DNA from: a virus
Length of the DNA: 40,033 bases
Direction: 5' to 3' (one strand)
UHGV virus genome: UHGV-0235137
Under the pieces are notes generated by a model, which was not told where the DNA came from, did no database searches, and saw nothing but the letters and a program-made list of their open reading frames with translations. Positions 16,324 to 28,311 of the stretch are shown here, in pieces (the stretch's first letter is position 1; each line of letters opens with the position of its first letter). Made by a program: the position numbers and the translations under genes.

Positions 16324-24339
<8,016 letters not shown>

Positions 24340-24341
24340 TA

Positions 24342-25529
24342 ATGGCAGTAGGTGAAATTCAAATTAGTGCCTTGCCTCAAGCAGCCTTACCAATTGACCT
24401 TAGTGATATCTTCCATCTTAAGCAGGGTATTGAGGATAAGAGGTGTACTCTTGAGCAATTACTTGCTCCACACGCAAGCCTAAGAAATAACCCTCATGGT
24501 GTTACTAAGACACAAATTGGTTTAGATAATGTTATTAATGCTCTTCAGTTAGTTGCTGCAAATAACTTATCAGATATTGTTAATGTAGCTGAGGCAAGAG
24601 CAAATCTACAGATTATGTCTTCAGAAGAGGTTAATAACCTTGTCCAGCAACATATTCAGGACAAGAGTAACCCACACAATACAACTAAGGCACAGGTTGG
24701 TTTAAGTAATGTTCAGAACTGGACAACATCTAACCTGTATAACGAAGATGCAGATAAGTATGCTACAGCAAGAGCAGTAAATAACTTGTACAAGGCTGTT
24801 CAGGCTTCTTATCCAGTAGGTACTATCCATCTTTCTATGAACTCTGCAAACCCTTCTACATACTTAATTTGTGGAGGTACTTGGGAGTTAGTTTCAAAAG
24901 GTAGGGCATTGGTTGGCTATGACTCTGATACAAGGCCAGCAGGTTCTGTATTTGGTGCTTCAACTGTCACTTTGTCAGTTAATAATATGCCTCAACACTC
25001 ACACTCTGTGTCTCTCAGTGGTGGTGGTCACACTCATAATGCAACTGTTTCAATCTCAGCTTTTGACTATGGAACTAAGACTACCAACTCTTTTGACTAT
25101 GGAACAAAGACCACTAACACAACTGGTAACCACAATCACGTTGGTAGTGGGTCAACAAGTGCTGCTGGTGCTCACAACCACAGATTGACTTATGAAGCAG
25201 GTGGTGGTCTGTCGGAAAGACCTGCAATGGTTTGGTCTACAAGGAATGACCAATCGTGGTACTCAGCAGATGCTGTCTGCGAAGTCGCTGGTTCGCACAC
25301 CCACTCTTTTAGCGTTACCACTAACACAACTGGTAACCACAATCACACAGTGGGGATTGGTGCTCATAGCCATACAGTTGGTATTGGTTCACATACACAC
25401 AATGGTACTGTGACAGTTTCTTCTTCTGAGCATACACATAGTGGAAACACGAATAGTGTTGGTGGTGGACAAGCTTTCAACATTGAGCAGCCATCCTTCG
25501 TACTGTATGTATGGCAGAGAACAGCTTAA
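24342..25529 (+). CDS. tail fibre protein with C-terminal His-rich HxH repeat domain
   Basis: repeated SHSHS, GHTHN, GNHNH, AHNH, GSHTHS, AHSHT motifs; C-terminal end similar to the next gene. Confidence 0.7.
   Translation: MAVGEIQISALPQAALPIDLSDIFHLKQGIEDKRCTLEQLLAPHASLRNNPHGVTKTQIGLDNVINALQLVAANNLSDIVNVAEARANLQIMSSEEVNNLVQQHIQDKSNPHNTTKAQVGLSNVQNWTTSNLYNEDADKYATARAVNNLYKAVQASYPVGTIHLSMNSANPSTYLICGGTWELVSKGRALVGYDSDTRPAGSVFGASTVTLSVNNMPQHSHSVSLSGGGHTHNATVSISAFDYGTKTTNSFDYGTKTTNTTGNHNHVGSGSTSAAGAHNHRLTYEAGGGLSERPAMVWSTRNDQSWYSADAVCEVAGSHTHSFSVTTNTTGNHNHTVGIGAHSHTVGIGSHTHNGTVTVSSSEHTHSGNTNSVGGGQAFNIEQPSFVLYVWQRTA
25061..25120 (+). repeat. 30-bp tandem duplication inside the tail-fibre gene (encodes FDYGTKTTN twice)
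   Basis: ttttgactatggaactaagactaccaactc / ttttgactatggaacaaagaccactaacac. Confidence 0.8.
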
Positions 25530-25575
25530 TTTCTTTACAGGGGCTTTATAGCCCCTTTTAAGAGGATAATATATA

Positions 25576-27633
25576 ATGGCAGATTACAAATTGAGTGAAT
25601 TAAACTCAATCGACACAATCCGTTCAGATGACCTTCTTCATGTCAGAGTTAAAAAGAGACCTGAAATGCTGGGTGATGAAGACCGTCGAATGACCTATCA
25701 AGATTTCTTAGCATCTTTTAAGCTTGAGAGATTTGTTCAGATTGCTGGCAGCACTATGACGGGTGACTTAGGAATTGTCAAGTTACTTTATGGTGGTAAG
25801 GCAGTCTTTGACCCAACAGGTTCTTCTGAGATTACTATTGGGGATGTTTTAAAGACTTTTAAAATTAACGCAAATGGTCTTAAACTAACTATTGCAGATG
25901 CTTCAAGGTCGGCAACTGTTTACCATACTCTGAATAAACCAAGTCCTAATGAGCTTGGGATGAGAACTAATGAACAGAATGATACAAGGTATGCAAGGCT
26001 AAGCGTTGGTAATACATTTAAAGCTAAACAGATTATCACAGTAGATGGTGAAGCATTAGCACTTAAAAATACTTCTGATATGCCATCTTTATATATTAGA
26101 GGTAAAGATTCAGGAGATAGATTAAAGTGGTACGTTGGATTTAACACAGATAATAAACTTGGTTTATCTAATAGTGTTACTGGTACAACACTACTATTAG
26201 ATGATACCGGTATTAACTCAAATAAAAATCTAAATATCACTGGTCAGGTTAAACCCTCTGATTGGTCTAACTTAGATGCTAGATATTTTACTCAGACAGT
26301 AGCTAATCAGAGATTTGCACAGTTAGCTGGGAATAACACTTTTAGTGGCACTAATACGTTTAAAAAAGATGTTATCTTTAACTCAGATGTTCCGGTTGTT
26401 CTTAAGAACTTAACAGCTAATAGACCATTGTATATTCAGGGTAAGGATTACCAGAATACTAGTTTGTGGTTTGTTGGTAAGGGTGGAACTGGTACTGAGA
26501 TTAAATTTTATAACTATGTGACTGATACAGTTTTAGAGTTGTCTGAGACGGCTAGATTTAATAAAACTTTGAAGGTTACTGGACAGGTTCAACCGTCTGA
26601 TTGGGCTAACCTAGATGCTAGATACTATACAGGTTCAGCAGCAAATGCCAGATATATGTATGCGGAAAGAACTGGTGAAGGTGCTGATGAGGGTGCTATT
26701 GCTTGGAATGCTAAGACAGGAGTATATAATGTCAAGACGGGGGGAGCCACATCATCAAATCTTGTACTTCAGTTCTATCAGGGGTCGGGGTCTATCACAT
26801 CTACGCCATCTGCGCAGCTAAGATTTAAATGGGCGAATGGTGGTATGTGGTATAGGACATCAAGAGATGGTAATGGCTTTGAGAAAGGTTGGTCTATGGT
26901 GTACACAACTGCACAGAAGCCAACCCCTTCAGATATTGGTGCATACACTAAAGCAGAAACTGACCAGAAGATTGCACAGGCAATTAGTGACTCTACAGAC
27001 CTTAACAAAATCTATCCAGTAGGCATTGTAACGTGGTTTAACAGTAATGTTAACCCTAACACAGCGTTGCCTGGGTTAACTTGGACGTACCTGAACAATG
27101 GTGTTGGTAGAACTATCAGAATCGCAGCAGCAAACGGTTCAGATGTTGCTACAACTGGTGGTTCAGACTCTGTAACTTTAGCTGTTGGTAACTTACCATC
27201 ACACACTCACAGTTTCTCTGCTACCACTTCATCTTTTGATTATGGTACGAAGGGCACTAATAGTACTGGTGGACATACTCACTATGTAAGTGGTACAACA
27301 AGTGCTGCTGGTAACCATGCTCACCACTTAGGTCTGTTATTAGTTAACGGTGGTGATGCTTTGTACGGGTATACAACCATTGGTAACGGTCTCCCTAGAA
27401 CGCTTGACTGGCTTGATAGAAGAGATAACAAGTTCCCTAACACTAACACAACTGGTGACCATACACACACATGGTCTGGTACTGCAAGCGGTGCTGGTGA
27501 CCATTCCCACTCTGTAGGTATCGGTGCTCACAGCCACACAGTTAGTGGTAACACTGGTAGTACAGGTTCTGGTTCAGCATTTAGTGTTACTAACCAGTTC
27601 TATAAGCTAATGGCTTGGGTAAGAACTGCTTAA
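25576..27633 (+). CDS. tail fibre protein (long), internal ~105-aa duplication and C-terminal HxH domain paralogous to 24342-25529
   Basis: PSDW(S/A)NLDARY repeated; C-terminal SHTHSFS...GGHTHY...GDHTHT...GDHSHSVGIGAHSHTV. Confidence 0.7.
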   Translation: MADYKLSELNSIDTIRSDDLLHVRVKKRPEMLGDEDRRMTYQDFLASFKLERFVQIAGSTMTGDLGIVKLLYGGKAVFDPTGSSEITIGDVLKTFKINANGLKLTIADASRSATVYHTLNKPSPNELGMRTNEQNDTRYARLSVGNTFKAKQIITVDGEALALKNTSDMPSLYIRGKDSGDRLKWYVGFNTDNKLGLSNSVTGTTLLLDDTGINSNKNLNITGQVKPSDWSNLDARYFTQTVANQRFAQLAGNNTFSGTNTFKKDVIFNSDVPVVLKNLTANRPLYIQGKDYQNTSLWFVGKGGTGTEIKFYNYVTDTVLELSETARFNKTLKVTGQVQPSDWANLDARYYTGSAANARYMYAERTGEGADEGAIAWNAKTGVYNVKTGGATSSNLVLQFYQGSGSITSTPSAQLRFKWANGGMWYRTSRDGNGFEKGWSMVYTTAQKPTPSDIGAYTKAETDQKIAQAISDSTDLNKIYPVGIVTWFNSNVNPNTALPGLTWTYLNNGVGRTIRIAAANGSDVATTGGSDSVTLAVGNLPSHTHSFSATTSSFDYGTKGTNSTGGHTHYVSGTTSAAGNHAHHLGLLLVNGGDALYGYTTIGNGLPRTLDWLDRRDNKFPNTNTTGDHTHTWSGTASGAGDHSHSVGIGAHSHTVSGNTGSTGSGSAFSVTNQFYKLMAWVRTA

Positions 27634-27711: not shown

Positions 27712-27906
27712 ATGCCTACAATCCTAGCAATTCTTCTAAAAAATCTAGGTAGCTTCTTCTGGAAACTCATTTTATCCCTTCTAAGTGAATACATGATTGA
27801 GAAAGTGTTCTTTAGGCTTGCAAGATACCTTGCGAGTAAAACAGACACACCTATTGATGATGAGTTCGTAGATAACTTAGAGAAAGCTTTTAAGGGGGGA
27901 GAATAA
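27712..27906 (+). CDS. small hydrophobic protein (holin-like candidate)
   Basis: 64-aa ORF with hydrophobic N-terminal half, after tail fibres. Confidence 0.45.
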   Translation: MPTILAILLKNLGSFFWKLILSLLSEYMIEKVFFRLARYLASKTDTPIDDEFVDNLEKAFKGGE

Positions 27907-28278
27907 ATGAAGTGGCTAGAGGAAGCTTTTAAAAATAATATTGGTGCAATTGTAGTTGGTATTTTTAGTGTTATTGGGATGTATACCACCATGCAAGTTT
28001 CGGATGGTAAACAAGAAGTGTCTATCACAACAAAGTTACAGCAGTTAGATAATTATTCCAAAAGTAATTATTCAGCTATTCGTGATTTACAGTCTGATAT
28101 GAGGCTGCTTCAGCTAGGGATGGAGAACCAGAAAGTCCAGTTAGAGAATGTTAAGGGTGAGAATGCAAAACTTACTAAGACTCTTGATAAATTCTCTGAT
28201 AGTGTGAACAATCTGGCTCAATCAGTATCAGCCCTCCAAGCTATTACTGAAAAGAACACAAAGAATACTGAAAAGTAA
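27907..28278 (+). CDS. membrane-anchored coiled-coil protein (lysis-associated candidate)
   Basis: N-terminal hydrophobic segment then heptad-like polar region; start overlaps previous stop. Confidence 0.45.
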   Translation: MKWLEEAFKNNIGAIVVGIFSVIGMYTTMQVSDGKQEVSITTKLQQLDNYSKSNYSAIRDLQSDMRLLQLGMENQKVQLENVKGENAKLTKTLDKFSDSVNNLAQSVSALQAITEKNTKNTEK

Positions 28279-28285
28279 AGTTTAA

Positions 28286-28311
28286 GGCTCCTTTTTACGG
28301 GAGCCTTTTTT
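28286..28311 (+). terminator. rho-independent terminator at the convergence of + and - gene blocks
   Basis: hairpin ggctcc-ttttac-gggagcc followed by tttttt. Confidence 0.6.

Follow-up and report, generated by a model that had tools for sequence, protein, structure and literature searches.

In the virus genome UHGV-0235137, a stretch of 40,033 nucleotides analysed here in full (the window), two adjacent genes on the plus strand (24342-27633) very probably encode the short tail fibre (STF) and the long tail fibre (LTF) of a Felixounavirus, both of them homotrimeric fibres with a variable receptor-binding head and a tip of the T4 gp37 type, in which metal ions would rivet the chains together at histidine-x-histidine (HxH) motifs. 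An earlier note on this DNA, which had been made without database searches, described the genes as two paralogous tail fibres with dense HxH repeats and a shared W-RTA terminus. Their identity as tail fibres was borne out by PHROG and Pfam matches and by a Bas63-like synteny behind the baseplate wedge genes. The STF matched phrog_2097 (tail fiber, 1e-137) and was 75% identical to gp26 of phage Bas63 over its full length of 395 residues, and STF alleles of the same length with 98% identity are common in public data. The LTF matched phrog_4277 (E-value 0) and showed 54-69% identity to Bas63 gp27 over the full length, in two segments. Across the fibre proteins, Pfam matches were obtained for Gp10_C, gp37_trimer, gp37_C and Phage_fiber, the last as a 14-residue repeat in the LTF.

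The whole region was 96.5% identical at the DNA level to Escherichia phage vB_EcoM_DE7 (Felixounavirus), and almost all of the 241 phage records that matched it came from Felix O1-like myophages with E. coli, Salmonella or Shigella as hosts. The gene order (baseplate wedge 2, baseplate wedge 1, a protein of 100 residues, STF, LTF and two small open reading frames (ORFs), followed on the opposite strand by the thymidylate synthase gene thyA and DHFR) was the same in Bas63, i.e. Escherichia phage JohannRWettstein (MZ501086), when our ORF map was compared with the Bas63 annotation. From these matches we assign the window to the genus Felixounavirus, as a Felix O1-like myophage. Both fibre proteins are part of the virion in Bas63, as seen by cryo-electron microscopy (cryo-EM; PMC12609058), and in VpaE1, as seen by mass spectrometry (PMC4690856).

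The STF contains 24 histidines, 18 of which lie within nine HxH motifs, and the LTF has six such motifs and one adjacent extra histidine, H584 (positions in Table 1). The examples singled out in the earlier note (GNHNH, GSHTHS and GAHSHTV) are all present. It could be argued that so many HxH motifs arise by chance from the composition of a low-complexity tail rich in Gly, Ser, Thr and His, and mean nothing structurally; the tail region is compositionally biased, and the BLAST filter masked part of it (about the first 19 residues of one query). However, composition-preserving shuffles gave a mean of only 1.39 HxH motifs for the STF and 0.30 for the LTF, with the observed count reached in 0 of 20,000 shuffles for each protein, and the motifs keep their positions from family to family and coincide in alignment with ligands known from the crystal structure. 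A compositional origin is refuted by the shuffles and by the homologies described below, and we assign it next to no probability. Among the other ORFs of at least 100 residues in the 40-kb window, none had more than one HxH motif. As a separate observation, the protein of 207 residues encoded at 20666-21289, which is 99% identical to the baseplate puncturing-apparatus protein gp21 of Bas63, has an HxH of its own (H188/H190), reported to coordinate iron at the spike tip, and this is a third metal-type motif within the same tail module.

When the two fibres were compared by BLASTP, their C-terminal parts of about 250 residues were homologous (34% identity, E-value 2e-30), ending in WQRTA in the STF and in WVRTA in the LTF, and no significant similarity was detected between the N-terminal parts. 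A phmmer search of all PDB sequences matched both proteins to the crystallized T4 gp37 tip (2XGF, gp37 residues 785-1026), with E-values of 2.6e-26 for STF residues 146-367 and 2.4e-16 for LTF residues 541-665, and the collar region of the STF also matched T4 gp10 (2FKK, 5HX2). The term 'paralogous' can be used only in a loose sense: the identity of each tip to T4 gp37 (39% for the STF and 43% for the LTF) is at least as high as that between the two. Judged by these identities, the STF and LTF tips go back either to two acquisitions of a widespread module or to ancient copies of it, and a recent duplication is not their source.

The HxH motifs of T4 gp37 are located at positions 883, 915, 929, 966, 980, 989 and 998. 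In a three-way alignment, six HxH motifs were invariant across T4 gp37, STF and LTF. All motifs of the LTF paired with T4 motifs, the T4 motif at 998 being unpaired in the LTF and present in the STF, and seven of the nine STF motifs covered all seven of T4. The T4 gp37 needle binds seven iron atoms at its HxH motifs, and the substitutions H929A and H931A are lethal (PMC6957217; iron sites also PMC12609058); the aligned motifs include H929/H931, whose counterparts are H278/H280 in the STF and H581/H583 in the LTF. The spacing of the motifs around the head was identical in the three proteins (14 residues on the descending side, 14 and 9 on the ascending side). Counted as descending plus ascending, T4 has 3+4 motifs, the STF 4+5 and the LTF 3+3. 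The two STF motifs without a T4 partner, GGHTHNA at 230 and SEHTHSG at 364, are found one on each strand, as would be needed for a longer hairpin needle. Finally, the last residues (...W-RTA) aligned with ...VRLA of T4 gp37. Since T4 gp37 residues 1010-1026 belong to the collar domain D10 (PMC6957217), the shared tail is most readily seen as the strand that closes the collar. To summarize, the similarity to gp37, a collar of the gp10/gp11/gp12 type and HxH motifs in register around a variable head, three of the marks of a T4 gp37-type tip, were all found in the aligned sequences of both fibres. The common metal-stabilised fold proposed earlier is supported to the extent that both tips are homologous to 2XGF and that their HxH motifs align with the iron ligands of T4; metal binding and receptor identity in these two fibres we infer from that relationship.

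To follow the motifs through the family, we used 66 STF homologues with identities down to 39%, from Erwinia, Pectobacterium, Yersinia and Hafnia phages and from metagenomes, and the 120 best clusters of LTF homologues, from which 56 sequences (that of the window and 55 others) were aligned. In STF homologues that possess a given repeat, conservation of its histidines is complete or reaches at least 90%: it is complete for H230 and H232, at least 90% for H219, H221, H278 and H280, and complete in the ascending strand wherever the repeat is present. The intervening x residue was represented by 7-11 different amino acids. Nine HxH motifs were the commonest number, with variants of 6, 7, 8, 10 and 11; the STFs of Felixounavirus mostly had nine and some seven, and a group from Erwinia phages had six. 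These counts suggest that the length of the STF needle varies in steps. The LTF histidines were invariant in the 56 aligned sequences, all 120 best homologues had exactly six HxH motifs, and 119 of the 120 ended in AWVRTA. Among homologues, the histidine codons alternate between CAT and CAC, which places the selection at the protein level.

The heads of the two fibres (STF residues 281-316 and LTF residues 585-626) are unrelated to each other, so the two fibres probably bind different epitopes. The STF head is moreover the least conserved stretch of its family, with an identity to the window sequence of 0.10-0.15, as one would expect of a head that contacts the receptor. Both observations agree with the earlier proposal that the fibres may differ in receptor specificity. 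The alignments also gave the impression that a conserved LTF tip stands against a hypervariable STF head. This contrast was rejected, because in a tblastn search of all phage genomes the LTF tip found 44 records with at least 80% identity and 180 with 60-80%, so that most Felixounavirus LTF tips are in the latter range; the tip looked near-invariant and the shaft variable because the set consisted of the 120 best-scoring homologues. Polymorphism of the LTF tip in the genus has also been described by the authors of the Bas63 structure (PMC12609058).

The LTF head was 95% identical to that of gp37 from the Tequatrovirus SHBML-50-1, a Shigella phage, but only 17% identical to the head of T4. The similarity extends to a needle-plus-head cassette (Table 1) with 92% protein identity over LTF residues 552-641, and its flanks drop to 18% in the collar upstream and to 48% at the C-terminus. 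About 30 records of Felixounavirus and about 6 of Tequatrovirus have the same head (38 phage records with a match). The cassette begins in the FDYGTK/GGHTH region and finishes in the GDHSHSVGIGAHSH region, and these borders in conserved His-box sequences fit the older idea that the motifs double as recombination sites. This idea reportedly goes back to work of Tetart et al. (1996 and 1998) on T-even gp37/gp38. Our comparison therefore points to an exchange of the head cassette across His-box sequences between two myophage families. One might go further and assume that GxHxH is kept mainly as a DNA-level recombination site for head swaps and not as a metal ligand, for which the position of the borders between dissimilar flanks and the occurrence of one head in both genera could be cited. 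The two roles are, however, compatible; the histidines are retained while their codons switch between CAT and CAC and their neighbours diverge to 39% overall identity, which indicates selection at the protein level, and the aligned histidines of T4 bind iron and are essential (PMC6957217). We therefore regard a mainly recombinational role as doubtful, though worth keeping in mind, and prefer the metal-riveted needle.

The LTF of the window differs from its relatives in one respect. Compared with the DE7 fibre of 791 residues, it is 97% identical except for a gap of 107 residues, which removes exactly one linker-plus-module period of the shaft, cleanly. A length of 685 residues occurred only in the window's own cluster, the other 119 of the 120 best clusters having 775-854 residues; residues were present in the gap in 55 of the 55 other aligned homologues; and no record among 50,697 phage genomes spanned the junction at 26602-26610. 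The protein of 685 residues was found in only 3 contigs, in ENA and Logan assemblies, with one ENA sample among the matches listed. In the Bas63 study, five beta-helix repeat domains were described in the LTF, and their number was stated to be invariant across the genus (PMC12609058). By these comparisons, the deletion is a rare exception to the fixed module number.

The rarity of this allele raises the question of whether it is defective or artefactual, that is, a collapsed repeat or a dead deletion mutant, which would leave the phage with only one functional fibre type. The length of all other best clusters, the presence of the module in every other aligned homologue, the lack of a junction-spanning phage genome and the recovery from only three contigs would all agree with this. 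On the other hand, the reading frame of the LTF is intact, the deletion comprises exactly one period and its junction looks native, and ENA as well as Logan assemblies yielded the protein. Furthermore, the repeat borders share only 9-11 nucleotides of exact identity, far less than the k of 141 of the MEGAHIT contig, which makes a repeat collapse unlikely. We thus consider an assembly artefact an unlikely source of the deletion, and a defective or artefactual LTF altogether improbable. In terms of reading-frame integrity, neither gene is a pseudogene, the case that the earlier note had named as a refutation; the frame of the LTF is intact with its in-frame deletion. Taking both LTF peculiarities together, we tentatively propose, with chances that fall a little short of even, that the 685-residue LTF is a functional, natural fibre shorter by one module, whose head cassette recently moved between Felixounavirus LTF and T4-like gp37 by His-box recombination. 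If true, shaft length would be tunable in the genus, contrary to the published invariance of the repeat number, and the same head would fold both with and without a gp38-type chaperone.

Based on the T4 and Bas63 structures, the two fibres can be pictured as follows. Both fibres would be homotrimers whose N-terminal ends bind the baseplate, with wedge 2 as the docking site of the STF and the gp25 platform as that of the LTF. The baseplate-binding role of the STF N-terminus and the attachment of the LTF to gp25 were described from the Bas63 cryo-EM structure (PMC12609058). The shaft that follows would be short and helical in the STF, and in the LTF would consist of beta-helix modules, conserved linkers and a gp37_C/Mu-S-type domain. 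Next comes the collar, from which the chain is predicted to descend a six-stranded beta needle, make a small head at the far end, ascend again and re-enter the collar with the ...W-RTA strand. In each HxH motif, both histidines would face the three-fold axis, so that three chains supply six ligands to one octahedral metal ion (iron in T4); up to nine such sites are predicted in the STF (4 descending and 5 ascending) and six in the LTF (3+3). The metal ions would rivet the thin needle in register, and the variable head would bind the receptor, for the genus the core of lipopolysaccharide (LPS). By analogy with the known fibres we infer trimer formation, the metal and its occupancy, the receptor and which of LTF and STF engages first.

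Several observations weigh against this architecture. AlphaFold2 monomer models, calculated for the full STF with the 66-sequence alignment and for the full LTF with 56 sequences, were poor for such an intertwined trimer (mean predicted local distance difference test (pLDDT) of 65 for the STF and 46 for the LTF, with less than 35 in the LTF tip), and a Foldseek search of the PDB with these models returned nothing at an E-value below 0.001. Because the models were too poor for histidine geometry, the proposed metal sites rest on the homology to 2XGF. No Felixounavirus fibre chain was found in the PDB sequence set, and the authors of the Bas63 structure called its fibre densities too weak for side-chain modelling, so that metal sites in the genus have not been seen directly (PMC12609058). 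The LTF collar scored 26.0 bits with Pfam Gp10_C, just below the cut-off of 27 bits. The LTF is also one module short of the full Felixounavirus shaft, which leaves its family identity unaffected but makes its function less certain. Finally, a tblastn search of the window with T4 gp38 found no gp38-type chaperone at E-values up to 10; dependence on gp38 belongs to the way T4 fibres are assembled and is not part of the fold.

Table 1 Features of the tail fibre region of UHGV-0235137 (residue numbers refer to the respective protein)
Feature	Position	Strand	Remarks
Baseplate wedge 2 (489 residues, Pfam Baseplate_J) and wedge 1 (287 residues)	21708..24037	+	Adjoin upstream; 97% and 95% identical to Bas63 gp23 and gp24
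LTF platform protein (100 residues), putative LTF attachment point on the baseplate	24037..24339	+	98% identical to Bas63 gp25
STF gene (395 residues)	24342..25529	+	Intact ORF, ends VWQRTA; homologue of Bas63 gp26
STF N-terminal baseplate-binding and helical region, residues 1-135	24342..24746	+	Two NPHxxTKxQ[IV]GLxNV repeats, residues 50-64 and 110-124
STF collar domain, residues ~140-218, T4 gp10/gp11/gp12/gp37-D10 type	24759..24995	+	Pfam Gp10_C 68.7 bits (cut-off 27)
STF descending needle strand, residues 219-280	24996..25181	+	4 HxH (219, 230, 264, 278) and duplicated FDYGTKTTN unit
STF head, residues 281-316, presumed receptor-contacting tip	25182..25289	+	Aligns with T4 gp37 tip subdomain after H929/H931
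STF ascending needle strand, residues 317-368	25290..25445	+	5 HxH (319, 333, 342, 351, 364)
STF C-terminal strand returning to collar, residues 369-395 (...FVLYVWQRTA), and stop	25446..25529	+	Aligns with T4 gp37 C-terminus ...NYIVRLA
Hairpin GGGGCT-TTAT-AGCCCC followed by TTTT	25540..25559	+	In the 46-nucleotide spacer between STF stop and LTF start; read from the sequence
LTF gene (685 residues)	25576..27633	+	Intact ORF, ends AWVRTA; Bas63 gp27 homologue, one shaft module shorter
LTF N-terminal baseplate-binding domain, residues 1-135	25576..25980	+	Identity 0.9-1.0 across 56 homologues
LTF shaft, two beta-helix repeat modules, residues ~136-225 and ~256-335	25981..26601	+	Each followed by GQVxPSDWxNLDARY linker; Pfam gp37_trimer 3e-42, two stretches
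Junction of 321-nucleotide (107-residue) in-frame deletion	26602..26610	+	Inside 9-nucleotide microhomology TGGGCTAAC; MAFFT alignment of window and DE7 genes
LTF gp37_C-type domain, residues ~361-450	26656..26925	+	Pfam gp37_C 7.5e-16; phmmer to phage Mu tail fibre S (8JU3) 6.6e-22
LTF collar domain, residues ~470-542	26983..27201	+	phrog_4618 (tail collar fiber protein) 8.7e-16; aligns with STF and T4 collars
LTF descending needle strand, residues 543-584	27202..27327	+	3 HxH (543, 567, 581) and H584
Needle-plus-head cassette, LTF residues ~552-652	27227..27530	+	304 nucleotides ungapped, 89% identical to Shigella phage SHBML-50-1 gp37 (L004 3490-3793; local blastn)
LTF head, residues 585-626, presumed receptor-contacting tip	27328..27453	+	Position relative to T4 H929/H931
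LTF ascending needle strand, C-terminal return strand (...YKLMAWVRTA) and stop	27454..27633	+	3 HxH (629, 643, 652)

The remaining parts of the fibres differ in their conservation. Residues 1-135 of the STF had an identity of 0.5-0.85 across the 66 homologues, and at its other end Y389, W391 and R393 were invariant. In the LTF shaft, the module cores were variable (0.36-0.58) and the linkers conserved (0.88). The gp37_C-type domain of the LTF also varied, and 7 of the 55 homologues had an insertion of 65 residues there (the forms of 851-854 residues); this internal gp37_C/Mu-S-type domain might provide a second, lateral binding site.

Upstream of the fibre genes, PDB 9NDY and PMC12609058 give the name 'LTF platform protein' to gp25, the Bas63 counterpart of the 100-residue protein. 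The hairpin between the two fibre genes may serve for weak termination or for mRNA stability; the consensus terminator scan missed it because it is followed by only four T, and the promoter and terminator scan around the fibre genes yielded no more sites than shuffled sequence. Directly 3' of the LTF gene are two ORFs of 64 and 123 residues (27712-27906 and 27907-28278), which are conserved in DE7 and Bas63 and matched only PHROGs of unknown function. The 64-residue product had a precomputed Pfam match to PF26925 (Phage_PM2_Gpl), and both products look membrane-anchored from their sequences. A strong terminator-like stem-loop with 9 base pairs and a T-rich tail (28284-28307) follows the 123-residue ORF, at the boundary between the structural genes, which run rightward, and thyA/DHFR, which run leftward; the GC skew changes sign there as well.

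With this analysis, the published picture of Felix O1-like phages, two fibres, each tipped with a gp37-type domain that HxH metal sites hold together, and a host range set by the variable head, was derived again from raw sequence. This has some value for annotation, as many database records label these genes only 'tail fiber' or 'hypothetical'. For fibre engineering, it could help that the borders of a naturally exchanged head cassette have been mapped between two myophage families, and that a natural in-frame deletion shows where a shaft module can be removed.

Compared with T4 gp37 (2XGF), both fibres are homologous from the collar through the needle to the C-terminal strand; their HxH motifs fall in line with the seven iron sites, and a variable head separates the descending from the ascending strand. 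They differ from it in the modest identity of the tips given above and in having nine and six motifs instead of seven. They are also far shorter than the 1026-residue gp37, each is a single gene product, whereas the T4 fibre is built from four proteins (gp34-gp37), and the receptor expected for the phage of the window is the LPS core only and not OmpC. LPS is the receptor of the genus (PMC8594841, PMC4690856), and Bas63 depends on an intact core. The collars of STF and LTF belong to the gp10 family, as do those of T4 gp10, gp11 and gp12. T4 gp12 has one zinc site coordinated by HxH. In the PDB search, gp12 itself was matched by neither fibre, and the Bas63 authors compare the construction of the Felixounavirus STF to that of a shortened LTF and not to that of gp12 (PMC12609058). 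Phage Mu tail fibre S (8JU3) is matched by LTF residues 369-467, but the LTF has the matching domain in its interior, ahead of the collar, instead of at the end of the fibre.

The gp37 of SHBML-50-1, like that of phages sutha, AV122, BYEP01 and N2, shares the needle-plus-head cassette with the window LTF. It differs in its T4-like collar, in its T4-like C-terminal part with extra HxH repeats and in the gp38-type assembly gene downstream. Another comparable phage is the Felix O1-like coliphage VpaE1, whose gp74 and gp75 are adjacent virion tail fibre proteins with C-termini reported to be homologous to the T4 gp37 adhesin (Viruses 2015, PMC4690856); both are conserved at the N-terminus, and the long one is variable in its middle part. 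VpaE1, which we liken to the window on the basis of that description, is specific for the truncated LPS core of E. coli B, and the paper discusses neither HxH motifs nor metals (PMC4690856).

Of the same genus as the window is Bas63, for which the cryo-EM study (Sci Adv 2025) reported seven HxH motifs in the STF and six with an extra histidine in the LTF (PMC12609058). Its two fibres likewise end in a gp37-like collar, needle and head with HxH motifs, and both LTFs have six motifs and one extra histidine at the head-proximal motif. That histidine precedes the motif in Bas63 (HHNH) and follows it in the window (HAHH), and the head sequences differ. Bas63 gp26 has seven HxH (2+5) and lacks the two head-proximal descending motifs, compared with nine (4+5) in the window STF, and Bas63 gp27 has 784 residues, compared with 685 in the window LTF with its one beta-helix shaft module fewer. 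The fibre design itself has already been published, the gp37 homology of both fibres for VpaE1 in 2015 (PMC4690856) and the tip with its HxH motifs for Bas63 in 2025 (PMC12609058), in the latter case nearly word for word; what is new in detail is the missing LTF shaft module, the head cassette common to the LTF and gp37 of some T4-like phages, and the two extra HxH motifs of the STF.

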